IMG/VR virus record: IMGVR_UViG_2802429064_000003
Source: a virus
Strand: one strand, 5' to 3'
Length of the DNA stretch: 64,000 bases
In this document: positions 16,838 through 38,100 of the stretch, in pieces
Layout: each line of letters begins with the position of its first letter
Position numbering within the stretch: position 1 is the stretch's first letter
Position numbers and translations under genes: made by a program
The notes under the pieces: model-generated
The model's database searches: none
What the model saw: the letters and a program-made list of their open reading frames with translations, nothing else
Told to the model about the DNA's origin: nothing

Positions 16838-18811
16838 TCAAGCTGCGGTTTCAACGGCGCCGGGGCGCTGGAAGGCCGGGAGCCACTTCTCGGCTTGGGC
16901 GAGTGCGATCAGGTCGCTGAGGTCACGGCGGTCGAGCTGGCCGGCGTCGGGGACTCCCAATTGCGACGCGAAGTCGATCTGCGCATCGGAGGACTTTGCG
17001 CGGGGGAGATCACGCATGTGATCGGGAAAGATATTCTGCGCCAGCGCGTCTGCCTCTGCCAGGCTCAGCCCTTGCAGGTAGCACCGGGGACCCGGTTCGG
17101 TCCACTGCCCATCGAGGCCGACCCAGAACATGCGGTGCACCGTGCTGTCGAAGAATCCGAAGGCCCAATCACGGCCCGCGACGGTCCCCGCGACACCACG
17201 CATATCGGCGAGCATCAGTACGCCTTTGTGGCCGTTGGCGCGGTACACCGAGCGCACGAGGCCCCGAGGGTGGTGTACCCAGCGGATGGTGGAGGTGCGC
17301 TGCGACCAGCTGGAGTCGCCTCGCCGCTGTTTTCCGGCGGCTAGGACGTCGCCGGTAACCGGATCGAAAGTCCGCAGCGGATCTACCCGGTGCAGGTCGC
17401 ATTCACAACCGCAACGGCACAGTCCGAAGGTCAGCGTGCATGTGCATGTGCAGGGGACACTGGACACGGGGTCGCTGGCTGGGCCTGACTCAGACGACTC
17501 GTTCGCACACGTGCAGTTGCATTCACAACCTATTCCGGTGCAGGAGAAGTCGCACTCGTCACTTGTGCAGGGCTGCTGGCAGAAGCAACCGAACCCGTCT
17601 TCGTCGCTCTCCGGTTTCTCGCGGTGTTCGGGGTCCAGGCGGGTCTTGACGATCAGCCCGAGGGATCCGGCGCCCACGAGGTCCACGACGAGAGCGGTGT
17701 CTTTGACGGTTCCGTCTTCGAAGGTGTGTGGCCGCAGTGCGCGCCCTACACATTGGACAAGCCTGGACTGGCTGCGCGTCGGTCTGGCCAGCACGACCGC
17801 TTCGCAGCGAGGGAAGTCTGCTCCCTCGGTGAGCACGTCGACCGTCACCAGCACCTGGGTGCTCCCGTGTCGGAATCGGTTGTAAATGCCGTTACGGACG
17901 CGGGTTTTGGTCTCTCCGACGACCACTTCGGCGGACACGCCTTGTTCGACAAGGGACTTGGCTAGTTGCTCGCAGTGCAACAACGAAGCGCCAAAGACGA
18001 TGGATGAGCGGCCCTCGGTGCGTGTCAACACCGCCTCGACAGTGGCGTTTAGCGTGGTCTCTCGCATCATCGCCTCTTCGGCGACCTCGTCGGAGATGTC
18101 TCCGCCACTACCGGAGGACAGCTTCGAGACATCAAGTTCCGGGAGTTCAACGGTCACGCCTTCTGGCGCGATCAAGAAGCCGTTTTCGATGGCCCAGTTG
18201 ATGTCCCGCTCGAAAACCACTTCTTCCCAGATGGTCCTCAAGGCGGGCTCGTCCCTGCTCGGGGCGTGGCGGATCATCGTCGCGGTGAATCCGGCGCGGC
18301 GCGCGCCCAGAGCAGTGAAGTGGTCGAGCACCTTGCGGTAGGTTCGGGCGGGCGCGTGGTGGGCCTCGTCGACGATGACGAGGTCGCGGTGTCCGATTCT
18401 GGTTAGGGCCGCCTCAGTCTGTAGTGATTGCACTGTGGCCGAGACAATCTGAGCAGTTGGGTCATCGCGATTGCCTCCTCCGATCAGCGAGGGGACGGGG
18501 CCGGCCGGGTTCACCGCTGAGACGGCAATGGCCATCTGCTTGATCAGTTCGTCGCGGTGGGCCATCAGCAGCACCCGGCCGCTGTTGGTCACCTCACGGC
18601 GCGCCAGCTCTGCGATGACGGTCGATTTTCCCGTCCCGGTCGGCAGCACGACCGCCGGTCCCACGACGCCACGGTTGTAGGCAGCGCATACCGCGTCGGC
18701 GGCTTCGATCTGATACTCGCGCAGTGGGCGTGGCTCGTTGGTTGCAGGGGCTGCGACAGGGAAAGCCATCTGCTCTTGATCTGCGGCGGGAGCCAAGTCG
18801 GTGACTGTCAT
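16838..18811 (-). CDS. Superfamily-2 DEAD/DEAH-type DNA helicase (ResIII-like) with a Cys-rich central segment
   Basis: Walker A VLPTGTGKST, motif II VIVDEAHHAP, a helicase C-terminal domain, then CFCQQPCTSDECDFSCTGIGCECNCTC. Confidence 0.75.
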   Translation of the reverse strand: MTVTDLAPAADQEQMAFPVAAPATNEPRPLREYQIEAADAVCAAYNRGVVGPAVVLPTGTGKSTVIAELARREVTNSGRVLLMAHRDELIKQMAIAVSAVNPAGPVPSLIGGGNRDDPTAQIVSATVQSLQTEAALTRIGHRDLVIVDEAHHAPARTYRKVLDHFTALGARRAGFTATMIRHAPSRDEPALRTIWEEVVFERDINWAIENGFLIAPEGVTVELPELDVSKLSSGSGGDISDEVAEEAMMRETTLNATVEAVLTRTEGRSSIVFGASLLHCEQLAKSLVEQGVSAEVVVGETKTRVRNGIYNRFRHGSTQVLVTVDVLTEGADFPRCEAVVLARPTRSQSRLVQCVGRALRPHTFEDGTVKDTALVVDLVGAGSLGLIVKTRLDPEHREKPESDEDGFGCFCQQPCTSDECDFSCTGIGCECNCTCANESSESGPASDPVSSVPCTCTCTLTFGLCRCGCECDLHRVDPLRTFDPVTGDVLAAGKQRRGDSSWSQRTSTIRWVHHPRGLVRSVYRANGHKGVLMLADMRGVAGTVAGRDWAFGFFDSTVHRMFWVGLDGQWTEPGPRCYLQGLSLAEADALAQNIFPDHMRDLPRAKSSDAQIDFASQLGVPDAGQLDRRDLSDLIALAQAEKWLPAFQRPGAVETAA

Positions 18812-19578
18812 GCAGCGCCTCGCTGTTCGGCGATCGCGGCGCCGAGCGTGAGAACGAAGTCACCGCCAGTGACGTACAGCCCGTCAGCTGCGGCCACCGT
18901 GATTGCGCGGCAAGGCTGATTGGGAACCTGCTCGAACGCAACGATCTCGCGGCGTAGTTCGTCGTCGCGCCCCCACAACGGCACGAGGCTGTATCCGGCT
19001 CCGTGCCGAACCCATGTAGGTAGTCCGCCTAGTGAACGGATCAGAGAGCCGGCGGCGGCCAGCGCCATGGAGGGAGCCGACGCTCCGATGCTGGACCGCG
19101 TGCCCAGTACACCGGCGAGCGTTTCGCGCCGCTGTGAGACGTCCGCGGTGAGGTACCGCCAAAGAAGGCCTGCGTCAGTAGCCTCGCCGCTGCGCAGTTC
19201 GGACCCGAAGGTTAGGGGGTCGACCGGGAGACCAGCGGCCTCCGGGAACGCAACGGCTGCCGCAGTCGGGATCGTCCAACGCGGTGCACCTCCCGGCAGC
19301 ACCAGATTGGCGCAGATATCAGCGGTGCGATAGATGCCGATCGCGCCGGTGGCGCCGTCACGAGCCTGCCACAGAGTTTCCGCGGCTACGTCGGTCTTGG
19401 CGCCGTCATCGAAATGCAGACGCGCCATCGAAACGGATCCGATGTCGTTGACGGCAAGAACCGGTATCGGGGTTCCATCGGACCCAAACACCGTGTCGCC
19501 GGGGACGAGATCGTCCAGCCGGCGGAATCCGTCAGGGGTCGGTATCGCCGTGTCGAGCGGCTGTGCGTGAGTGTTCAC
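18808..19578 (-). CDS. Hypothetical protein, weakly Hint/intein-like at its N-terminus
   Basis: AIPTPDGFRRLDDLVPGDTVFGSDGTPIPV resembles Hint block A, but block B is not seen. Low certainty. Confidence 0.4.
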   Translation of the reverse strand: MNTHAQPLDTAIPTPDGFRRLDDLVPGDTVFGSDGTPIPVLAVNDIGSVSMARLHFDDGAKTDVAAETLWQARDGATGAIGIYRTADICANLVLPGGAPRWTIPTAAAVAFPEAAGLPVDPLTFGSELRSGEATDAGLLWRYLTADVSQRRETLAGVLGTRSSIGASAPSMALAAAGSLIRSLGGLPTWVRHGAGYSLVPLWGRDDELRREIVAFEQVPNQPCRAITVAAADGLYVTGGDFVLTLGAAIAEQRGAA

Positions 19579-20372
19579 AGAACCGGGGCAGGCAGGTGAT
19601 CAAGCCAGACCGGTGGCTTGCCGACGGCGACCATTGCGGTTGCGGTGGCCAGACGCACGGCTACCGCGCTGCGAAGCATCGGATTGGCCGTACCGCGCAC
19701 AGTGCTCGTGAATGGGCAAGTCACCATGGCGAGGTGGTACGCCGCCAGTGCTTCGCGCGTGTGCACGGTCAGCACCTTGCTGTGTTGGTATTTCTGCGTG
19801 AGATGGTGCAGCAGTGCGAAATCAGCAGCCTCGATACGCAGGCATGTGAGCATCACTGGACCCCAGTGGGGGCCGTAGATGTCTTTCAGGGATGCAGCAC
19901 TGACTACCAATCGCTTCAGCCGCGAGATGATTTTGGTGTCCGTGCACTCCTGGCTGTGGTTCCACTCTTCGTCGGCATTGGTGCGCGCGAGAATTTCCAG
20001 CAGCGTGGTTCCCAGTGTCAGGTTGCGCGAGGAACCAAGAACCGAGCACCGCAGGCACGCGGCACCCTGCTGCGGGTGTTCGTGTGCTTGCGCGAGCTCA
20101 GTGATGTTGTCGGCCTGGATATTGGCGGCTGTTCGCTTGGCCAACGCGTTCGTGTAATCCACGATCAGCTGCATGTCCATGACAGTCTCGGTGACTTTCT
20201 CAGCAGCAGCGCCCGACTCTTCGGAATCATGCGAGACCAGGGGAGTAACACGTACAGGGATCAGGCCATCGCTGCGGCCAGATACCGGGCGAGGCAACAG
20301 GATCGGCTGCGCACCGGGCGCTTGCGCACCCAGTGCCCGGCTATCGAGGATGTCTGAAGGTACAGCGGTCAC
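19575..20372 (-). CDS. Hypothetical protein
   Basis: Coupled ORF in the leftward operon. Confidence 0.45.
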   Translation of the reverse strand: MTAVPSDILDSRALGAQAPGAQPILLPRPVSGRSDGLIPVRVTPLVSHDSEESGAAAEKVTETVMDMQLIVDYTNALAKRTAANIQADNITELAQAHEHPQQGAACLRCSVLGSSRNLTLGTTLLEILARTNADEEWNHSQECTDTKIISRLKRLVVSAASLKDIYGPHWGPVMLTCLRIEAADFALLHHLTQKYQHSKVLTVHTREALAAYHLAMVTCPFTSTVRGTANPMLRSAVAVRLATATAMVAVGKPPVWLDHLPAPVL

Positions 20373-21523
20373 AAGCTGACCGCCGTCGTCGCCGCCACGG
20401 TGACCACAAGTGCAGGACCTTCGACGGTGAGCTCGACGAACGCCGACAGCACGTTCAGAGCGGGCAGGACATCGCGAGCAAGCGCTACCAAGTCGGTTCC
20501 GGCATCGAACGCGAATTTGTTCCCGGCACTCAGGTCGATCGGCACGCGCAGATTGAGTCCGCCACTGACCACCTGGGACGGGGATGAGTCAACGGGTGCT
20601 GCCGGTGTAAGAGCCGAAGGTGCGGGCTCCTCTGTGGCGCTCGGGGCGGCGACGATCGGCGCCGAGAAAGCAGGTGCGGGAGCCGGTTCCACCGGTGTGG
20701 TGGTGGGCTCAACGATAACCGGCGCCACCGAGGCGGGGGAGGGCGCAGGAACCACCGGAGGCGCAACAGGCTCGGCTACCGGCGCTGCGGCGACTTCGGG
20801 CTCTGCGACAGGGGCCTCGGAGCTAAGTGCCGCAGCTGCTGCGACGATCGCTTCGAGATCCTTGCGGGTGATACGCCCGCGACTGCCGGTTCCTGTCACG
20901 GTCGATAGGTCGATGTTGTGCCGGGCTGCGAATGCCCGCACGCTGTCCGACACCGGCACCGAGACAGCTTGCGCAGCTACCGATTCGACACTCGGTGCTG
21001 CGACAACCGGTGCAACCACTGGTGCCACATCAACGGCGCCAACGACCGTGCCCTGGGCATAGACCGGTTCAGGCGCCGGGGCGGGTTCTGCGGTCTGTGC
21101 CGGTTGAGCAGCCGCAGCTGGTGCAGAGATCGGGGCCACCGGAGGGGTGACAGATGGCGCGACCGGAGGCGGTGTGACCGGAGCGATTCCGGCGATCGGG
21201 GAAGTCGAGGGTGCCGGCTCGACGGCAGCCACGGTCACTGGAGTGACGGCGGGAGCGGCTGGCGCAGGTACGGGGACCGGCTCAGACGAAGTAACCGGGG
21301 CATCTAGAACGGCTGTGGGAGCCGGAACAATCGGCGCCGCGGTGTTCAAGGGTACGACCGGCGCAACGGGTGCAACCGGGCTGACCGTTGGTGTGGCCGG
21401 AGCTGCCGGCGGTGCAACGGGCGCAACGGGAGCGGCCACCGGAGCGACAACAGGCGGTGCGACAGCGGCGGCGGGCGGGTGTGTGATGTCACTGAGTGCG
21501 GGAACGGCTGCTGGTGCAGACAT
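20369..21523 (-). CDS. Pro/Ala-linker protein containing an E2-type peripheral subunit-binding (E3-binding, PSBD) domain
   Basis: VRAFAARHNIDLSTVTGTGSRGRITRKDLEAIV is a near-canonical PSBD, flanked by long PA-rich linkers such as those in 2-oxoacid dehydrogenase E2 proteins. No lipoyl or catalytic domain. Confidence 0.55.
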   Translation of the reverse strand: MSAPAAVPALSDITHPPAAAVAPPVVAPVAAPVAPVAPPAAPATPTVSPVAPVAPVVPLNTAAPIVPAPTAVLDAPVTSSEPVPVPAPAAPAVTPVTVAAVEPAPSTSPIAGIAPVTPPPVAPSVTPPVAPISAPAAAAQPAQTAEPAPAPEPVYAQGTVVGAVDVAPVVAPVVAAPSVESVAAQAVSVPVSDSVRAFAARHNIDLSTVTGTGSRGRITRKDLEAIVAAAAALSSEAPVAEPEVAAAPVAEPVAPPVVPAPSPASVAPVIVEPTTTPVEPAPAPAFSAPIVAAPSATEEPAPSALTPAAPVDSSPSQVVSGGLNLRVPIDLSAGNKFAFDAGTDLVALARDVLPALNVLSAFVELTVEGPALVVTVAATTAVSL

Positions 21524-21560: not shown

Positions 21561-21604
21561 GTGGAAACGGGCCTCAGGTGTAGTGGAAACGGGCCTCAGG
21601 TGTA
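21561..21604. repeat. Perfect 22-bp tandem direct repeat x2 (GTGGAAACGGGCCTCAGGTGTA)
   Basis: Seen directly in the sequence. Overlaps the 3-prime end of gene 21596-22096. Confidence 0.6.
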
Positions 21605-22096
21605 GCTGAGGTTCAGCGTTGGCGCGGCGACGGAAACCAGCTCGGCGTACACATCGGGGTAGCGCTCCTCGAACAGGTCGTACTTGACCGAGCGCGCCCC
21701 TGCCTTCTGAGTGACCGTGAATCCGTCGTAGACGCCAGGGGTGTTGGCCACGGCGGTGAGCAGCGCGACGCGGACCGCCTTCAAGGCCTTCGCGCACCGG
21801 CTGTTGACGGAGCTCAGGATCTGGCCCTGTCGCGTCGCCGTGGCTGCCCGCATGGACACCTGCAGGACCAGGTGTGCGAGTTCGGCAGCGGGGTCAGCCG
21901 ACGCCTCGATGAACGCCACGATTTCGTCTGTCGACAGAGCCGATGTGGCACCAGTCGGGGCAGGCGCTTGTGGTGCGAGTAGGCCCGCGGGGGCAACCCC
22001 GTGTAAAGGCGGAGCCGTGGGTACTAACGGCGGTGAAGCGGTCATGAGTGCGGTCTCCTCGAAGTGGTCGGTCCGAGTGACGAGGATGTCCGGCAT
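21596..22096 (-). CDS. Hypothetical protein, first gene of the leftward operon
   Basis: The ORF ends at the divergent intergenic region. Confidence 0.45.
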   Translation of the reverse strand: MPDILVTRTDHFEETALMTASPPLVPTAPPLHGVAPAGLLAPQAPAPTGATSALSTDEIVAFIEASADPAAELAHLVLQVSMRAATATRQGQILSSVNSRCAKALKAVRVALLTAVANTPGVYDGFTVTQKAGARSVKYDLFEERYPDVYAELVSVAAPTLNLSYT

Positions 22097-22099
22097 CCG

Positions 22100-23067
22100 G
22101 AGGAGGTGAATCGAATTTGCGAATCATCCACGTTTCCATCACCGGCAATTGCCGTCGTCTCGGTGAGCGTAATGCCGGTTGTGATGCCTACGCAACACCT
22201 GTTCTATTTCTGCGTGTCGTTGTACGCCTGGGGTCTGACAAGTGGGCGCCATCCAGCTCTCAACCTGGGGAAATGTGTGGGGAAGTCGGTGGGGAGTGAA
22301 TGGGCGGCGCGTGGCTAGTTGCCGGTTGTTGCCTGTCACGTCCCCAGGGCATTGCGCGAAAGTAAGTTTCGGCAGATTGGTCGACGGGTTCCCGTCAAAC
22401 TCGCACCAGGCCTCCAACTATGTCTGGCTGCCCGGCATCGACTCACGGCCCGCCCGCCAGCCCCGGCTCTCCGCGGTTGGCGTGAATCTGTTCGTCGTGG
22501 TGTGTAACTTTCCCTGTTGACCTGCGGTTTCTGTCAACAGGGCGTGTACTTGTTGGCCTACCTGCGTGTTTGTGTTGATGCCTTGTAAGTGGGGGGTGCC
22601 TCGGAGACCCCCTCGGCGTGCACATATACACACGCGTTCTGACCGGCTTTGCCTCACGTAACGGGTAAAACAAATAATTAGCTAAACTAATTACATATAT
22701 CTACCTGGGGTTTCTTTATAGACCTACCGTGTGGGCAATTTTATGAAGCCAGAGCCGCGCCGAGGCACCCCCCACCTACAAGGCATCTCCGTAAAACCGC
22801 TGGTAGGCCGAGAAGTGCACGCCTTGTTGACCATTTACGCAGGTCAACGCGGCGAGAAACCGTGCACACCGAACGATTCGCACCACGAAAAAGTGTGCAC
22901 ATCGCAGAGGCGGAAATGTGCAGCAGTGGCGAGCGGCGGCCGGTGTCGGCGAGATCAGCAGTGGCGATATTTCGATGTAGAGATCAGGCGAATGGGCAAT
23001 ATGCCTATTTCGATGCCACCTATCGGCGTGTCGGCAACTAGATGGCAATGATGTCGGCATCGGATGC
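22100..23067. promoter_or_regulatory. Large divergent non-coding control region with several inverted repeats flanking a 100-bp AT-rich core: candidate early promoters, replication origin or site-specific recombination site
   Basis: No convincing ORFs. IR CCCTGTTGAC/GTCAACAGGG (22512-22542) contains TTGACC. A 24-bp IR (22581-22604 versus 22760-22783, one mismatch) brackets the AT-rich core at 22650-22740. Further IRs at TTGACC...GGTCAA and GTGCACAC...GTGTGCAC. Confidence 0.5.
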
Positions 23068-25863
23068 TTGACTGGCCGCGTGTCCGATGAGCCCAACGTG
23101 CCAGTGGTCGATCTGCCGCGTGTCAACGCGGTCGAGTTCCAGTTCTATGACCACACGGTCGGGGCGCATCTAGTTACCGCTGACAAACAGATGGCGAGGT
23201 GGATCGACGAGCTTCGGTCGGCGCCGCCAGCCGCGGTGGCCGTCGATATCGAGACCCATGGTCTTGACGTCAACAAGTTCACCATCACGTGTGTCACCGT
23301 GGCCTTCGAACTCGGTCAAGACATGGTGGCGCTGTTGTTCGATCCTCTGCGCCGTGCTGAACACCGCGGGATGCTGGCGCGGGTCTTCGACCACGCGGAC
23401 CGCCTGGTCTTCCACGGCGCCAGCTTCGACATCGCTCCGCTGTACGCCCACAGGCTCATGACGAAGGCGCATATTCGCAAGCTCGGCGACACGCTGGTCG
23501 CCGCGCGGATGGTGGGGACCAATGCCAAGGCCGGCCGCACACTCGAAGACCTCGCGAACGTGTTCCGCGTGATGGACGACGATCGCACGTCGATGACCGA
23601 AGTGTTCTCCGCTCGAGGACTTAAGAAGGACGACGGTTGGCGGGGAACTGATATCGACACTCCGACCTATGTAGTGGGTGCGTTGTCCGACACCGTCGCG
23701 ACAAAGCGCCTTTGGGGTGTCCCCGGCGTTAACGGACACGGCATCATGGCCAAGGCCGCTCGCTACCTGACGGCCCCGTCAGCGGGTTTCGGCGGCCATG
23801 GTGTTCTCACAGCCACTGACGCTGAAGCACTCGTCGAGGACATCCAGCGCGTCAACGCGATAGTGCTGGAGCGGACGGCACGCGGATACGCGGTCGACAA
23901 AGAGTTCCCCCAGCGTTTCCTTGAAGAGACTGCTGAGCAGACGCGGGCTGCCGCAACGACTCTCGCTGAGGCGGGAATCCGCCCGGGCAATGCCGCTGAC
24001 CTGGTCAACACCCTCGATGCCCGCGGTCTGCTGCACCAGCAATGGCCGCGTACCGACACAGGCCGCCTGAAAGCCGATAAGAAGGCCTTGGAGGTCTTCA
24101 CCGGTGAGCACATCAGTGACGCGCTGAAGAACCCGCTGGTGATGGCGCACCGTGCTGTTTTCGACAACGAGAAGGACCGCGGCTATGTCGAGAAGGTGGT
24201 CGAAAATGCAGGCCCCACAGGGCGCCTACATCCAGAAATCAAGATTTTGGGCGCCAGCGCCACCGGCCGCATGTGCCTGCCCGAGAATCAGCGGCTGCTG
24301 ACCCGCCGGGGCATCGTGTCTGTGAACGAGATCCGGACCGGCGATCGAACCCTGGATGCAGACGGGCGCTGGACGACGGTGCGGGCGGTGCACCGATACA
24401 GCGATGCGCCGCTTCGCCGTTACACACTCGATGATGGAATCGAACTGATTTGTACACCCGAGCACCGCTGGGTTACCGAGAACACGGCCGGTAAGCGCAA
24501 GGTTCAGCCTCTTGACCGTGCGCGGCAATCCGACCACCTACGGCTCACGCCGCCTATTACTCCCGGGGTCTGCGGAGGCGGGAACTCCATGACCGCTCCG
24601 CAGCACGCCGCGTACACCATCGGGCGTGTCACTGTTCAGCTTGCGCGACAACGCACCGGCGAGTTGTCCGATGCTCTGTGCGGTCCAGCCGAGACGCGGC
24701 GCGCGACGGTGACTAGCCTGCGTGAGCGCTGGCAGACCGAAGGTGAAACCTGCTGGGTACCCGAGCATGCGCCACGAGACACCGCGCTGCACTCGGTGTG
24801 CGACAAGTCTCTCGATGAGCTTTGGAACATGCTGGAGGGTGCGAGCCACTACGCCACAAACGTCAGTCACGCTGGTGTCACCGTGCTGCCCACACCCAAT
24901 AGACGCTACGCCGAGGCTTTCGCGCTGGCGGGATATCGTCTCGGTCTGCGATCCCTGATCTTTGACGCGCCTGCAGGGGCCGCCGTCGTGCTACATCGAG
25001 GGCGCTCCAGCCTGGCCAACATGGTTGTGAGTGATGCCGGAGAAGGCGATGTGTGGTGTGTGACAACTGATTCGGGCACATTCACCGCATGGGGCGAACA
25101 TGGCCCGTACCTGACGGGCAACAGTGCGAGCAAGCCGGAAATTCAACAGTTTCCCAAACTGGCACGTGGAGTCATCGTCGCTGATTCGGGTGCCGAGGGC
25201 TGGATTTCGGCGGACTGGAAATCGATCGAACCCGTGGTGCTGGCGACTGCGGCCGGAGACAGGCAGTTCATCTCCGACATGCGCGCCGGCATGGATCCGT
25301 ACGAGCCGGTGGGGCAAGCAGCCGGTATTGACCGCAAGCTTGCCAAGCGAAAGATGCTTGCGGACATGTACGGGCAGGGGCTCAAAGCCGCTTCGCTGCA
25401 ATATGGTTGGTCACTGGATCAAGCTCGGTTCGTTCAGAACACGATCCGCGGATCGCTGCCGATTCTGTACAAGCTGATCGACGCACTCAAGGCGCAGTCG
25501 CAACGATTCGGGCACGTGACCACGCTTACTGGCAGGGTGGTCGATCAGAAGTTCAGCTTCTACGAGGGCGGACGTCTGGTGAGCGATGTGGCACAACGCA
25601 TTGCGCCCAATCACTTCTGCCAAGGCTCGGCGCTGGACATCATGCACTACGCGATTCTCGAATTGGATCGCCGCGGGCTATCTGATCACGTCCACCTATG
25701 GATGCACGACGAGATCGTGGCGGACAAGGAGATCGCCGAGGAGTTGGCGGAAGTCATGGCCACGCCGCCCCCGTTCCTTGAAGCGGTGGCGCAGTACCAC
25801 GGTATCGAGGCGTTCTTGGCCGTTGACGTCAATGAGATGGGCAGCCGATGGGAGTACGTGTGA
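23068..25863 (+). CDS. polA: Family A DNA polymerase (Pol I-like, 3-prime to 5-prime exonuclease plus polymerase domains) interrupted by an intein
   Basis: Exo motifs VDIETHGL and [11 protein letters not shown]. Polymerase motif A region TGRM|C...N|[11 protein letters not shown] is split by a 283-aa insertion. Motif C region LWMHDEIV. Confidence 0.8.
24274..25122 (+). other. Intein (283 aa) inserted in polymerase motif A (TGR|intein|S..PxxQxxP)
   Basis: Starts with Cys in a block A-like [20 protein letters not shown]. Block B is ICTPEHRW. Ends ...[24 protein letters not shown] followed by +1 Ser. The penultimate residue is Gly rather than His, so splicing competence is uncertain. Confidence 0.65.
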
Positions 25864-34099: not shown

Positions 34100-35104
34100 A
34101 TGACATCGACCTTGTGCCTGGAATCGAGGCCAACTGGGCTGGTTCCGAGCGAAGATGTGAGGGCAGAGCCCTCGTCAGATGCGCGCGAAGACGCGCGCTC
34201 GGCGAAGTTCAGCCGAGATGCCGTCCGGTACCTCCTGGAGTACATCGCTGCGAATGGTCACGCGCATATCCCGCGTGACTATGTGTGCGCAGATGGCTTC
34301 CAACTCGGTGCACGGTCCAACAACTGGCGGCGGCGAAAGATCAGTCCGGAGTTCATAGCGAGGCTTGACCGCGTGAAGCTCTGGCGGTGGACTGCCGAAG
34401 AAGCGCGATGGGACGCCCGCTTTGCGCTACTAACGGAATACATACAGGAACACGGTGACGCACGTCCGCCCGCCAGATGGCGCTCGGTTGATGGATTCCG
34501 TCTCGGCGGCTGGGTTGCCCGTCAGCGCGCCTTGTATCGTGAAGGTCATCTCGATCCGGATCGCACGGCTCGGTTAGAGGAGTGCCCCGGTTGGGTCTGG
34601 GAGCACCCGACGAACTTGCGATGGGCCGAGGCTTACAAACTGCTCTGCCGATACGTGGACGAGCATGGGACTGCAGCTGTTCCCTTGTCATACACCCACT
34701 CCGAGGGATACAGGCTCGGGGATTGGGCCGCCGCCCAGCGGTACTACTTCAAGACCGGAAGTATGAGCAAGGAACGAGCCCAGCTGCTCGAATCGCAGCC
34801 AGGGTGGTCTTGGACACGAGAATCAGCACGCTCAGATGAGCAGTGGGAGTGTGGATTCAATCATCTGCTCTGGCTTGTCGGACAGACAGGCTTCGCTGAT
34901 GTCCCCGCTGGGTATCGCACTCCAGATGGATTCCGGCTGGGACCATGGGCGTACTCGCAAAGGTCCCAGCAGCGCGACGGAACGCTAGATCCAGAAAGAG
35001 CTGCACGCCTCAACGCGATACCCGGATGGACCTGGCACATCGAGCCGAGCCGCAAAATTGCTCCACCGTATTCCACGCTGGTGTCCGCAGGAGCTTCGTC
35101 GTGA
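34100..35104 (+). CDS. Helicase-associated (HA) domain repeat protein (4-5 HA repeats, no helicase core)
   Basis: Repeated W..W...F..L..Y...HGH..VP......GF.LG.W...QR......L...R...L...PGW.W units. GGGAGTG RBS. Confidence 0.6.
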   Translation: MTSTLCLESRPTGLVPSEDVRAEPSSDAREDARSAKFSRDAVRYLLEYIAANGHAHIPRDYVCADGFQLGARSNNWRRRKISPEFIARLDRVKLWRWTAEEARWDARFALLTEYIQEHGDARPPARWRSVDGFRLGGWVARQRALYREGHLDPDRTARLEECPGWVWEHPTNLRWAEAYKLLCRYVDEHGTAAVPLSYTHSEGYRLGDWAAAQRYYFKTGSMSKERAQLLESQPGWSWTRESARSDEQWECGFNHLLWLVGQTGFADVPAGYRTPDGFRLGPWAYSQRSQQRDGTLDPERAARLNAIPGWTWHIEPSRKIAPPYSTLVSAGASS

Positions 35105-38100
35105 AAGGGCATGTCAAGGCCACCACCGTGCCCGCTCCAAAACTGCGTGTGAGGCCACCAAATCCACTTCGCCAACACCAGATCGACGCCCTCACGGCTG
35201 TGCAGACCGACGTGGCGCGTCAACAGCTCATCATGGCGTGCGGAACAGGGAAGACACTGACCGGCCAGCATGCCGTGGCCAAGCTACTGGGCGAGCAACC
35301 CGGAACAGTCCTGGTTCTGGTTCCGACACTTAGCCTGTTGGAGCAGACGTTCCAGGCATGGGCCGCGTATGCTCCGTTCGGATTCGACTCGATCGCCGTA
35401 TGCTCTAAGTTGACCCCTGCTGAAAAGCGAAGCGTCGGTACAGAGGATGACACTGATACCGGTCAGCTTGCGTTGGCAGCCACAACCGAACCAGCGGAGC
35501 TCGCGGACTTCCTGGCTGGCCAAGAACGGACGACGCGGGTCGTGTTCGGCACCTACCAGTCACTCGACACAGTGATCGCTGCCCATGCCGATCACGGCGC
35601 AGAGCCGTGGAGCGTGGTCGTCTGCGATGAAGCGCATCGCACCGCAGGAGCCAAGGCCAAGCCGTTCGCGCGAGCGCTTCACGATGAGTTCGTGCCGGCG
35701 CGCCGGCGACTGTTCCTGACAGCAACGCCGCGTGTGCATACCGTGTCGGAGAAGGAATCAGGGTCGGAGAAATCCACGTTGCTGGCGTCGATGGATGACG
35801 AAACGCTCTACGGCAAGCAGGTTTATACCCTGTCGGTGGCCGAAGCGATTGAGAAGAACATTCTGTCGCAGTACCGCGTCGCGGTAATCGGTGTAGAGGA
35901 TGCGGAATTACAAGCCGCGGTGCGGACGCTCGAAACGGTGAAGGTAGCAGGAAGCGACCTGTCGCTTGATCACGTCGCATCGATCGTGGCGCTGTCGAAG
36001 GCGGCGCAGCAATACGGACTGCAGGCGATCATCGCCTTTTTCAACAGCATCAAGTCCAGCAAGAGTTTCCGTGACGCCTTCAACACGGTTCACGAAAGTC
36101 GCGTTGGTGAGCACCTTGCCGAAGGGGTTGCCGAACACATCGACGGCGCCATGAAATTAGAGAAACGCCGTGCTGCTCTGACACGGCTAGCGCAGAATCG
36201 CGACAATGGTTTCTACCTCGTATCTAACGCACGGTGCTTGTCTGAGGGTATTGACGTACCGGTTTTGGACGCAGTCTTCTTCGGGGAGCCTCGCAGCAGC
36301 CAGATCGAGGTCGTGCAGTGCGTCGGCCGCGCGATCCGCAAGAACCCCCGTCACGACAATCCGGCGCTGATTGTGATTGGGGTGCGCATCGGGGCCGGTG
36401 AGGACATCGAAGCGGCAGTCGACGAGTCGCAGTTCAAGAAGATTCGACAGGTTATCGCGGCGTTGTCCGACCACGACCCACGCATCGCCGAGGCCGCCCG
36501 CGTTCTGGCCCGAAGCGGAGGATCCAACCCGGACGATTCGGTCCACGAGAAAACCGACTGGGCCAAAGATCTTCTTGCATTGGAGGTCCCGGAGGCACTG
36601 CTGCATAACGGGTTCGGGCTGCGGATGCTGGACGTTAGAAATCGAGACTGGGAGAAGCGGTTCGCGCAAGTTTCTCAACACGCTCAACGTACCGGAAACG
36701 TGATTTTTGCAAATACGGACCCATGCGGCAGCTGGATAAACAAGCAGCGCATGAAATTCCGTGAAGGAAGACTACCAGTGGAACGTAGTAGGCGGCTTGA
36801 GTCCCTGCCTGGATGGAGCTGGGATGTACTTACTGATCAATGGGAGATGCGCTTTGTAGAAGTTTCTCGACGGGCTCAACGTGTTGGAACCGTGGCGTTT
36901 CCACACGGAAGCCCGCAGAGTGCGTGGGTGACCAATCAGCGCAAAGCGTTCAGTGACGGAAGGCTACCAGTGGAACGTAGTAGGCGGCTTGAGTCCCTGC
37001 CTGGATGGAGCTGGGATGTACTTACTGATCAATGGGAGATGCGATTCGCGGAGGCCTCTCAACGCGCTCAACATGTTGGCAACCTGGCAGTTTCGAGAAA
37101 CCAGCCACTAGGTAAATGGATAGCTAATCAGCGTCGGCGTTTCCACACTGGTTCACTTTGTGCTGAACGAATCAAGCGGCTTGAGTCGCTGCCAGGGTGG
37201 AGCTGGGATGTACTTACTGATCGGTGGGAGAAGATGTTTGTGGAGGTTTCTAGACATGCTCACCTCAGGGGCAACGTGACATTTCCAAGCAAAGATCCGC
37301 GAGGTACTTGGGTAACTAAACAGCGCAAATCCTTCCGCGCCGGCACGCTGTCTGCCGAACGCATCAAGCGTCTAGAGGCTCTGGCCGGCTGGAGTTGGGA
37401 TGTGATCTCGGCTCAGTGGGAGAAGATGTTTGTGGAGGTTTCTAGACATGCTCACCTCAGGGGCAACGTGACATTTCCAAGCAAAGATCCTCGGCAGGTG
37501 TGGGTATCCCAGCAGCGGACAACGCACCTCCGTGCGGGCACGTTGTCTCTTGAACGCATCAAGCGGCTTGAGTCGCTGCCCGGGTGGAGTTGGGATGTGA
37601 TCTCGGCTCAGTGGGAGCAGCGGTTTGCGGAGGTTTCTAGACATGCTCACCTCACGGGCAACGTGACATTTCCAAGCAACGATCCTCGGATGCTATGGGT
37701 ATACACGCAGCGGAAGTCTTTTCAGGTCAACAAGCTTTCTGCTGAACGAATTAAGCGGCTTGAGTCGCTGCCCGGGTGGAGTTGGGATGTACTCACCGAT
37801 CAATGGGAGCAGATGTTCGAGGTGATTCACCACCATTCCCGTCTAACCGGGCGGATTGCGTTTGATAGAAGGGACACACGCACGTACTGGATTCAGGTTC
37901 AGCGCCAACGTTTCCGTGCGGGCACCTTGTCTCCTGAACGCATCAAGCGTCTAGAGGCTCTGTCCGGTTGGACCTGGGATGTTCTCGCCGACCAGTGGGA
38001 GCAAAGTTACGCCGAAGTATGTCGTTACGCTGAGCGCACCGGCAACGTGACTTTTCCGGACAGGAACCCCCTGCGAAGCTGGGTAAGTCGGCAGCGCAGA

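Follow-up and report, generated by a model that had tools for sequence, protein, structure and literature searches.

The window analysed here is a stretch of 64,000 nucleotides (nt) from the IMG/VR virus record IMGVR_UViG_2802429064_000003. On its plus strand, positions 23068-25863 hold a gene for a family A DNA polymerase that encodes a 3'-5' exonuclease, a polymerase and an insert of 283 amino acids (aa). The insert is an intein beyond reasonable doubt, and we suggest that it is probably an active, splicing-competent class 1 intein of a family that combines Cys1, a Cys at position F:4 and a terminal Thr-Gly-Asn, and that its homing endonuclease is dead.

The polymerase gene and the boundaries of its insert

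The gene was taken from the list of open reading frames (ORFs). The exteins were delimited by alignments to intein-less homologues and to Taq polymerase, the latter of which also placed motif A, and the intein was delimited as a single clean gap against the intein-less homologues.

23068-25863, plus strand: intein-containing family A DNA polymerase gene, 931 codons and a stop codon
23068-24273, plus strand: N-extein, 402 aa
23239-23268, plus strand: exonuclease motif DIE, in the N-extein
24259-24273, plus strand: first half of polymerase motif 2, ATGRM, at the end of the N-extein
24274-25122, plus strand: intein, 283 aa, from Cys1 to Thr281-Gly282-Asn283
25123-25860, plus strand: C-extein, 246 aa
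25123-25155, plus strand: second half of polymerase motif 2, at the start of the C-extein
25204-25245, plus strand: polymerase motif A, uninterrupted, equivalent to Taq VALDYSQIEL
25333-25374 and 25693-25719, plus strand: two further polymerase motifs of the C-extein

The host protein is a plasmid- or phage-type family A DNA polymerase of a Mycobacterium-like mobile element. Outside the insert it is 68% identical to the 'DNA polymerase' WP_068741752 of Tsukamurella tyrosinosolvens plasmid 13, and it has the hallmarks of family A polymerases, namely motifs A (DxSxIE), B (RxxxKxxxxxxxYG) and C (HDE) and the exonuclease DxE. When the 931-aa ORF is compared with Pfam, DNA_pol_A_exo1 matches its N-terminus (E=1e-10), and the match to DNA_pol_A (E=1e-20) is confined to residue 686 onward.

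The insert comprises 849 nt or 283 codons in frame, corresponding to ORF residues 403-685. It begins with TGC (Cys) at 24274-24276 and ends with GGC AAC (Gly-Asn) at 25117-25122, and the next codon is AGT (Ser) at 25123-25125. Alignment with three intein-less homologues (the Tsukamurella plasmid 13 polymerase, Gordonia phage Mahdia gp44 and Mycobacterium phage Saguaro gp58) opens one gap, placing the 283 aa between ...ATGRM and SA(A/S)xPE(I/L)QQFP. Because the flanking residues differ at both junctions (M/C and N/S), the boundary is fixed and cannot slide, and the coordinates and end residues given to the intein in an earlier note on this DNA, written from the sequence alone, are exact to the codon. 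That note had named a different boundary with a canonical His-Asn terminus as the outcome that would speak against its claim; we found no His-Asn near the C-terminus of the intein, and the alignment with the homologues leaves no freedom for such a boundary. In protein-level searches, all 1441 of 1441 phage matches align in two pieces and skip the insert, as does the match in the Tsukamurella plasmid, which is the sole plasmid record that covers both exteins. Whole-gene nucleotide searches of the phage and plasmid collections gave no match, and the protein-level searches are the informative ones.

At the insertion site, the joined exteins read GCCACCGGCCGCATG/AGTGCGAGCAAGCCG, in which the slash marks the junction as it does throughout. 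On Taq polymerase, ASATGRM/ aligns with ATATGRL/SSSDPNLQNIP, bearing out the earlier observation that the insertion splits the conserved TGR...S..PxxQxxP motif. The name given to this motif in the earlier note, motif A, is a mislabel: judged by the Taq alignment, the interrupted TGR/PxLQxxP element of the active site is motif 2, which precedes motif A, and motif A lies intact in the C-extein, where it aligns with Taq VALDYSQIELRVLA and holds the catalytic Asp equivalent to Taq D610. Standard Taq numbering, with which D610 of the alignment agrees, puts the intein between L574 and S575. R573 of Taq is the Arg that contacts the primer terminus, and the insert follows the counterpart of this residue by one position; an unspliced polymerase should therefore be dead.

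The intein family, its alleles and the central domain

Identification of the insert as an intein is based on sequence relatives, structural matches and catalytic blocks. An exhaustive HMMER search of 1.84e9 representative proteins with the intein as query and a cut-off of E<=1e-3 returned 371 matches, of which 40 had E<=1e-10 and the best had E=1e-32. A word-indexed protein search with the intein alone was empty at E<=1e-3, giving the appearance of an 'orphan intein'; this was a tool artefact, overturned by the 371 HMMER matches. The top sequence match in the PDB is the gp41-1 intein (E=4e-4). Structural comparisons were made with an AlphaFold2 (AF2) model built on an alignment of relatives, which has a mean predicted local distance difference test score (pLDDT) of 80.7 and of 94-98 in the Hint parts (residues 1-90 and 250-283); a single-sequence model with a pLDDT of 46 was discarded. 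In a Foldseek search of the PDB with this model, inteins come out on top (E 2e-7 to 1e-3), the full-length matches being endonuclease-containing inteins (TliVMA with E=2e-7, PhoVMA, PI-SceI and PI-PfuI) and the Hint-only matches being the Prp8, Msm and Mch DnaB-1, gp41-1, Ssp DnaB and Npu DnaE inteins. In cultured phage genomes, tblastn with the intein gave marginal N-terminal matches in jumbo phages only, and the polymerase intein is present in no cultured phage of the collection. The GC content of the intein, both overall and at third codon positions (GC3), equals that of the exteins, indicating that the intein is a long-term resident.

The Hint blocks are laid out below. Blocks A and B had already been recognized in the earlier note, and both are present (Cys1 and TPEH, respectively).

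24274-24312, plus strand: block A, with Cys1 (24274-24276) as the N-terminal nucleophile; C1, P3, T10 and G13 invariant
24436-24477, plus strand: block B (TPEHRW), with Thr61 at B:7 (24454), His64 at B:10 (24463) and Trp66 at B:12 (24469); T61, H64 and W66 invariant
25048-25095, plus strand: block F (DVWCV), with Cys262 at F:4 (25057) and Gly268 (25075) at the usual place of the F:13 His; V260, W261, C262 and T265 invariant, G268 nearly so
25102-25125, plus strand: block G, GPYLTGN and then Ser+1, with Thr281 at G:5, Gly282 at G:6 (25117-25119), Asn283 at G:7 (25120-25122) and Ser+1 (25123-25125)

Invariance was scored in alignments of inteins at the same site, whose invariant columns are C1, P3, T10, G13, W33, T61, H64, W66, V260, W261, C262, T265, T281, G282 and N283. 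Position F:13 was assigned by comparison with 'DHLF' of MP-Be and the typical 'HNF', in place of which the window intein reads GTF.

To delineate the family, intein copies were taken from the best 150 of the 371 HMMER matches by searches with the N- and C-terminal blocks. At least 32 clusters of family A polymerases, mutually <50% identical, carry an intein at exactly the same site in the pattern ..(G/S/A/H)-R-x/C...T-G-N/S..P.LQ..P, with Cys1, TGN and Ser+1 in 32 of 32. A further 102 relatives lie at other sites or in other proteins; 95 of these start with Cys and 90 end in TGN. Across all copies, Cys1 is combined with TGN in 120 of 135, and the full set of C1, Trp B:12, Trp-Cys in block F and TGN is found in 80 of 135. 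As read from these alignments, the family signature consists of Cys1, Thr-x-x-His-Arg/Lys-Trp in block B, Val-Trp-Cys in block F, and Thr-Gly-Asn followed by Ser, Thr or Cys. The intein family is large and is common in actinobacteria and their phages.

The penultimate His (G:6) is frequent but not obligatory in inteins. In the window intein it is replaced by Gly282, as the earlier note had correctly seen from the GGC AAC at the end of the insert, and with Gly268 at F:13 both assisting histidines are missing. The note had offered two ways to understand the Gly, an unusual cleavage mechanism or an inactive intein. This is a false dilemma because a Gly-Asn ending is a known functional variant, and it is moreover the rule in the family described above. 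Among class 1 mycobacteriophage inteins, the penultimate His is often Gly, Lys or Ser, and the Bethlehem RDF intein, with Gly in position G:6, splices to completion while its G316H variant accumulates precursor (Kelley et al. 2016, mBio, PMC5050341). On translation, the Bethlehem RDF gene reads C1...TANHRV...EVWCLRV...IHLTGN/S, with boundaries that match Tables S2 and S4 of that study, and the BillKnuckles TOPRIM intein of the same study ends ...VYCVSV...SVTGN/C. The AceL NrdHF intein has neither assisting histidine, yet it splices within minutes (PMC7891396). Because Gly282 is invariant across such divergence, it appears to be selected rather than degenerate, and the alignments show Thr-Gly-Asn to be no occasional lesion but a conserved signature, found together with Cys1 and Cys F:4.

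Some relatives carry more than one intein. P0001, P0004, P0008 and P0012 have a second one further downstream in the polymerase, at or near motif B in P0001 and P0004, and P0001 reads ...NMLKTT/CVPLST...LITGN/CYAKLYSGG at this place; the window polymerase has the motif 2 intein only. Some of the second inteins belong to the Cys1/VWC/TGN family, and one is of the canonical His-Asn type (P0012, ...FLSHN/C).

A scan of one genome per species recovered six further alleles in Mycobacterium/Mycolicibacterium (L005-L010), from Mycobacterium sp. D16Q14 (76% identical), Mycolicibacterium canariasense, M. austroafricanum, Mycobacterium sp. 48b, M. syngnathidarum and one metagenome-assembled actinomycete genome. 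The intein is present in 6 of 6, with the frame open throughout and all catalytic residues retained, and none of the seven alleles, the window included, has a stop or a frameshift through the intein. We estimated selection according to Nei-Gojobori, as the proportion of nonsynonymous differences (pN) between the window and L005 and as the ratio of nonsynonymous to synonymous rates (dN/dS) in the close pairs L006/L010 and L007/L008.

N-extein: pN 0.107; dN/dS 0.04-0.07
Hint-N: pN 0.134; dN/dS 0-0.16
Middle: pN 0.290; dN/dS 0.33-0.44
Hint-C: pN 0.230; dN/dS 0.32-0.36
C-extein: pN 0.141; dN/dS ~0.05

The dN/dS figures are rough and indicative only, because synonymous sites are saturated in distant pairs and substitutions are few in close pairs. 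Purifying selection acts on both exteins, and the middle of the intein evolves fastest of all segments (pN 0.29 vs 0.11-0.14 in the exteins). As the C-extein is constrained as strongly as the N-extein, translation would run through the intein and a working polymerase would be produced; the open frames and the purifying selection on the C-extein thus argue for active splicing and against an inactive intein.

Between the two halves of the Hint domain lies the central domain, the extent of which was set by hhalign to the endonuclease profile of the family.

24499-24987, plus strand: decayed LAGLIDADG homing endonuclease, ~160 aa, intein residues ~76-238
24607-24639, plus strand: position of LAGLIDADG motif 1, acidic Asp-Gly lost
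24811-24855, plus strand: position of LAGLIDADG motif 2, acidic Asp-Gly lost
24901-24954, plus strand: retained AGYRLG helix of the central domain

Typical inteins at the same site are 310-336 aa long and contain the motifs AALIGxLVSDGRC and AFLxAVWLADGS, with a weak Pfam match to LAGLIDADG_3 (E=3e-4). The window intein is ~40 residues shorter, and its middle has no match in Pfam; hhalign aligns this middle with the family endonuclease profile collinearly, with a probability of 93-96% and E-values from 1e-7 to 2e-9. Where the relatives read LVSDGR and WLADGS, the window reads RVT-V and SHYAT, and both catalytic acids are gone, from which it follows that the element can no longer home. The Glu of 'LEGAS' was considered as a surviving LAGLIDADG acid and rejected, since it needs a shift of one residue within the helix that neither MAFFT nor hhalign supports. 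Identity to the orthologue P0002 is 72-77% in the exteins, 60% in Hint-N, 53% in Hint-C and 23% in the middle. In the AF2 model, pLDDT is <60 for residues 101-165 and 86-94 for residues 170-250, such that the N-terminal half of the central domain is predicted to be disordered and the C-terminal half, including the AGYRLG helix, is predicted with confidence.

Comparison at the same site places these features in a series. The window intein, P0002 and L005-L010 are ~275-283 aa long and have lost both LAGLIDADG motifs, P0015 is reduced to 227 aa, and P0032, at 131 aa, is a true mini-intein. Judged by these lengths and motifs, the same-site inteins form a classic series of endonuclease decay from complete endonuclease to mini-intein, and the central domain of the window intein is most simply read as the remnant of a two-motif LAGLIDADG homing endonuclease. 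The idea in the earlier note of a degenerate endonuclease in the centre of the intein has therefore stood up to hhalign and to the loss of both acidic positions. Its term mini-intein has not: inteins reduced to the splicing domain measure ~130-200 aa, and the window intein has 283 aa, including the ~160-aa domain homologous to endonucleases.

Splicing activity and splicing route

Altogether, our results favour a model whereby the intein splices by the class 1 route. In this model, Cys1, activated by Thr61 and His64, would form the N-terminal thioester, the N-extein would be transferred to Ser+1 to give a branched ester, cyclisation of Asn283 would release the intein, and an O-to-N shift would restore polymerase motif 2 and yield an active polymerase of 648 aa. 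Asn cyclisation would proceed without either assisting histidine, and the conserved Gly, along with Thr G:5 and Cys F:4, is probably a tuned solution to this step and no defect. The intein would persist because only a precise deletion would restore the polymerase.

A number of observations weigh against this model or parts of it. Standard profile libraries barely detect the intein (Pfam Hint_2, E=0.11; TIGR01445, E=0.16), the literature yielded no splicing assay for it or for other inteins inserted at this polymerase site, and saturation and small numbers of substitutions blur the selection estimates. The central domain is partly constrained (dN/dS 0.2-0.44) and its C-terminal half is confidently folded, and 'pure remnant' may be too strong a description. 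Finally, the window intein has a complete class 3 signature triplet of Trp, Cys and Thr (WCT), consisting of Trp66 (B:12), Cys262 (F:4) and Thr281 (G:5), and Catera gp206, which has the triplet together with a nucleophilic Ser1, is treated as class 3 (PMC3196547). Because of the full triplet and this precedent, the class 1 assignment is not secure. Both the triplet and the loss of the two assisting histidines had been missed in the earlier note, and the triplet is the more interesting mechanistic point.

In class 3 inteins, Cys F:4 attacks the N-terminal junction and position 1 normally has no nucleophile; 3 of 37 WCT inteins in a 2010 survey had Ser1 or Cys1, and Ser+1 was present in nearly all class 3 inteins (PMC2807308). 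By analogy, Cys262, positioned by Trp66 and Thr281, might attack the N-terminal junction of the window intein or take the N-extein over from Cys1, giving a branched thioester in block F from which the N-extein passes to Ser+1, with Cys1 being dispensable or acting as a relay or redox partner. Such a class 3 or hybrid route is in keeping with the invariance of the triplet and the Ser+1 of the same-site family, with the efficient splicing of Catera gp206 (S1...EHLW...VRCITV...PTHN/T) among the class 3 inteins (PMC3196547), and with the structural comparison, in which the Msm and Mch DnaB1 inteins, both of class 3, rank among the best matches to the Hint parts alone and Foldseek gives 24% identity and a root mean square deviation of ~3 Å over ~90 residues. 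We nevertheless consider it unlikely, if still to be reckoned with. The invariant Cys1 of the same-site inteins, and its pairing with TGN in most of the wider family, are unexpected if residue 1 is dispensable, and Thr B:7 is retained. The original class 3 definition, later relaxed, asks for no nucleophile at position 1, where the window intein has Cys1 and where the class 3 references that we recovered have Pro (Bethlehem TerL) or Ala (P0124 and P0134); moreover, these Ala1 inteins from the HMMER search have a THN and no TGN ending. By crude identity over the Hint region, the class 1 Bethlehem RDF intein (32%) is closer than the class 3 references (21-25%), and class 1 inteins with a Cys at F:4 exist and are polyphyletic (PMC3196547). 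The invariance of Cys1, the THN ending of the Ala1 inteins and the closer relation of the Hint domain to the class 1 RDF intein make class 1 the most likely assignment on sequence grounds; these reasons are not decisive. A study by Tori and Perler (J Bacteriol, 2011) tested WCT inteins with a nucleophile at residue 1, among which Catera gp206 was reportedly class 3 and the Nocardioides TOPRIM and Thermobifida Tfu2914 inteins were reportedly class 1.

That the intein is instead inactive, with a Gly-Asn end that cannot cleave and a polymerase gene that is either non-functional or works with the insert in place, appears highly improbable. The absence of the penultimate and block F histidines, the weak matches to standard intein models and the old age of the element implied by its decayed endonuclease could be seen in this light, and one decayed, non-splicing intein pseudogene, Arth_1007, is documented (PMC3196547). 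Against this stand the catalytic positions, invariant across 32 divergent same-site inteins and seven mycobacterial alleles, and the absence of stops and frameshifts from all alleles; selection constrains Hint-N to the same degree as the exteins and is strongly purifying in the C-extein. In addition, with the insert adjoining the counterpart of Taq R573, an unspliced polymerase is expected to be dead, and splicing has been demonstrated for a TGN intein (PMC5050341).

For the central domain, the alternative to a remnant is that it has been kept for another role, e.g. binding of DNA or protein to time splicing to replication or conjugation. Its dN/dS is below 1 (0.20 for the window vs L005, in addition to the values in the close pairs), the AGYRLG helix in its confidently modelled C-terminal half is kept across the family, and the frame is open in all alleles. 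Residual constraint of this kind is, however, expected from the mere need to stay in frame and not to hinder folding of the Hint domain; the middle drops to 21-25% identity between lineages with exteins that are 70-77% identical, and the N-terminal half is predicted to be disordered. The domain is cut down in P0015 and gone in P0032 at the same site, arguing that it is dispensable for splicing. We therefore regard another role as very unlikely and retain the interpretation of the central domain as the probable remnant of a homing endonuclease within an intein that splices by the class 1 route.

It is tempting to speculate that this family, with Cys1, the Trp/Cys/Thr triplet and Gly-Asn but neither assisting histidine, is no plain class 1 variant and bridges class 1 and class 3 in mechanism, in which case it would represent the phage ancestor, already pre-adapted, that gave rise to class 3 when Cys1 was lost; we hold this to be quite unlikely. 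If true, one version would be a two-thiol relay in which the Cys1 thioester passes to Cys F:4 and on to Ser+1; in another version, a Cys1-Cys262 disulfide switch would render maturation of the polymerase redox-dependent.

Related inteins, genomic setting and implications

The closest among the reference inteins tested is the intein of Bethlehem gp51 (RDF), with which the window intein shares Cys1, a TxxHR block B, an (E/D)VWC block F with Cys F:4, LTGN followed by Ser+1, a LAGLIDADG-type endonuclease domain and an actinobacterial mobile element as host. Unlike the window intein, it sits in a metallophosphoesterase/RDF after ...EGNHD, its Val at B:12 in place of Trp leaves the WCT triplet incomplete, its G:3 residue is a His (IHLTGN) with no counterpart in PYLTGN of the window, and its endonuclease is active, being toxic when cloned, whereas that of the window is decayed. 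The same-site polymerase inteins (P0001-P0034 and L005-L010) have an identical insertion point, the same catalytic set (C1, T/H/W, VWC and TGN/S) and a collinear central domain, and they differ in that most retain the two LAGLIDADG motifs (LVSDGR and WLADG). With the class 3 inteins (MP-Be 'DnaB'/TerL, Msm/Mch DnaB-1 and Catera gp206), the window intein has in common the WCT triplet, Ser or Thr at +1, the phage and actinobacterial distribution and the Hint fold; class 3 inteins normally start with Pro or Ala and end in THN, and they mostly reside in the P-loops of helicases and terminases rather than in a polymerase.

Inteins without a penultimate His that are named in the texts cited here are those of Chlamydomonas ClpP, Ssp DnaE and AceL NrdHF, and His G:6 is accordingly not essential. 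AceL NrdHF also lacks His F:13, as does the window intein, but all three belong to unrelated lineages, in which other residues compensate. The penultimate residue is Gly in the ClpP intein and Ala in Ssp DnaE, and the ClpP intein splices poorly until the His is restored. The TGN family shows the opposite behaviour in that restoring the His is deleterious. Bacterial DNA polymerase I inteins are listed in surveys (PMC4760082; PMC5874633); the insertion site is described neither in the main text of PMC4760082 nor in the mycobacteriophage survey's supplementary tables, among whose entries there is no polymerase intein.

The neighbourhood of the polymerase is syntenic with Tsukamurella tyrosinosolvens plasmid 13 (L001, NZ_LR134455.1), the synteny extending upstream over an E3-binding-domain protein, hypothetical proteins and a DEAD/DEAH helicase. 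Further genes of the window include the following.

10-1635: nicotinate/nicotinamide phosphoribosyltransferase
34945-38205 and 42562-45885: SF2 helicases with repeated HA domains, two of three SF2 helicases in the window
39382-41442: FtsK/SpoIIIE and AAA ATPase
56835-58505: RNase T-like exonuclease

This gene content points to the replication/transfer region of a large actinobacterial plasmid or of an integrative element with its own replication genes. A scan of the window for a second intein of the TGN family found none, and the one other Hint-like sequence is a free-standing intein-like ORF of 256 aa at 18808-19578 on the minus strand, directly upstream of the DEAD/DEAH helicase gene (16838-18811) and overlapping it by 4 nt. 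In appearance, this ORF is a class 3-type intein that has hardly any exteins and in which catalytic residues are damaged: block A reads AQPLDTAIPTPDG and has no Cys1, block B reads AAETLWQ (with Thr in place of His B:10), block F reads QPCRAITV, and block G reads DFVLTLG and has no Asn. There is a resemblance to Arth_1007, the decayed intein pseudogene of Arthrobacter (PMC3196547). A homologue of 257 aa occupies the syntenic place in Tsukamurella plasmid 13 (L001:3488-4261), and because it is conserved in two elements the ORF may have a function. The DEAD/DEAH (ResIII/Helicase_C) helicase itself, also on the minus strand, has 657 aa vs 984 aa in the syntenic Tsukamurella helicase and contains an unusual Cys-rich stretch after the helicase core (residues ~400-470; ...GCFCQQPCTSDECDFSCTGIGCECNCTCANE...CTCTCTLTFGLCRCGCECDLH...). 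Closer to the polymerase, 20369-21523 on the minus strand encodes a low-complexity protein of 384 aa rich in Ala, Pro and Val, the only recognisable part of which is a 30-residue E3-binding (peripheral subunit-binding) domain (Pfam E=2e-10); its position beside the polymerase is conserved in the Tsukamurella plasmid ('E3 binding domain-containing protein'). Between a divergent gene (21596-22096, minus strand) and the start of the polymerase lies a gap of ~950 nt, in which 22300-23060 has no convincing long ORF and may hold promoter or origin-type sequences.

For annotation, the gene at 23068-25863 is best called as a single intein-containing polymerase with a mature product of 648 aa. The penultimate Gly, the co-occurrence of Cys F:4 with Cys1 and the decay of intein endonucleases are already documented, and nothing in our finding overturns current understanding. 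What it raises is the mechanistic question of how many nucleophiles, one or two, are at work in an intein that combines Cys1 with the class 3 triplet. To the intein catalogue it adds a well-populated insertion site, occupied in the at least 32 clusters described above, such that motif 2 of plasmid- and phage-type family A polymerases emerges as a recurrent home of one well-defined intein family.

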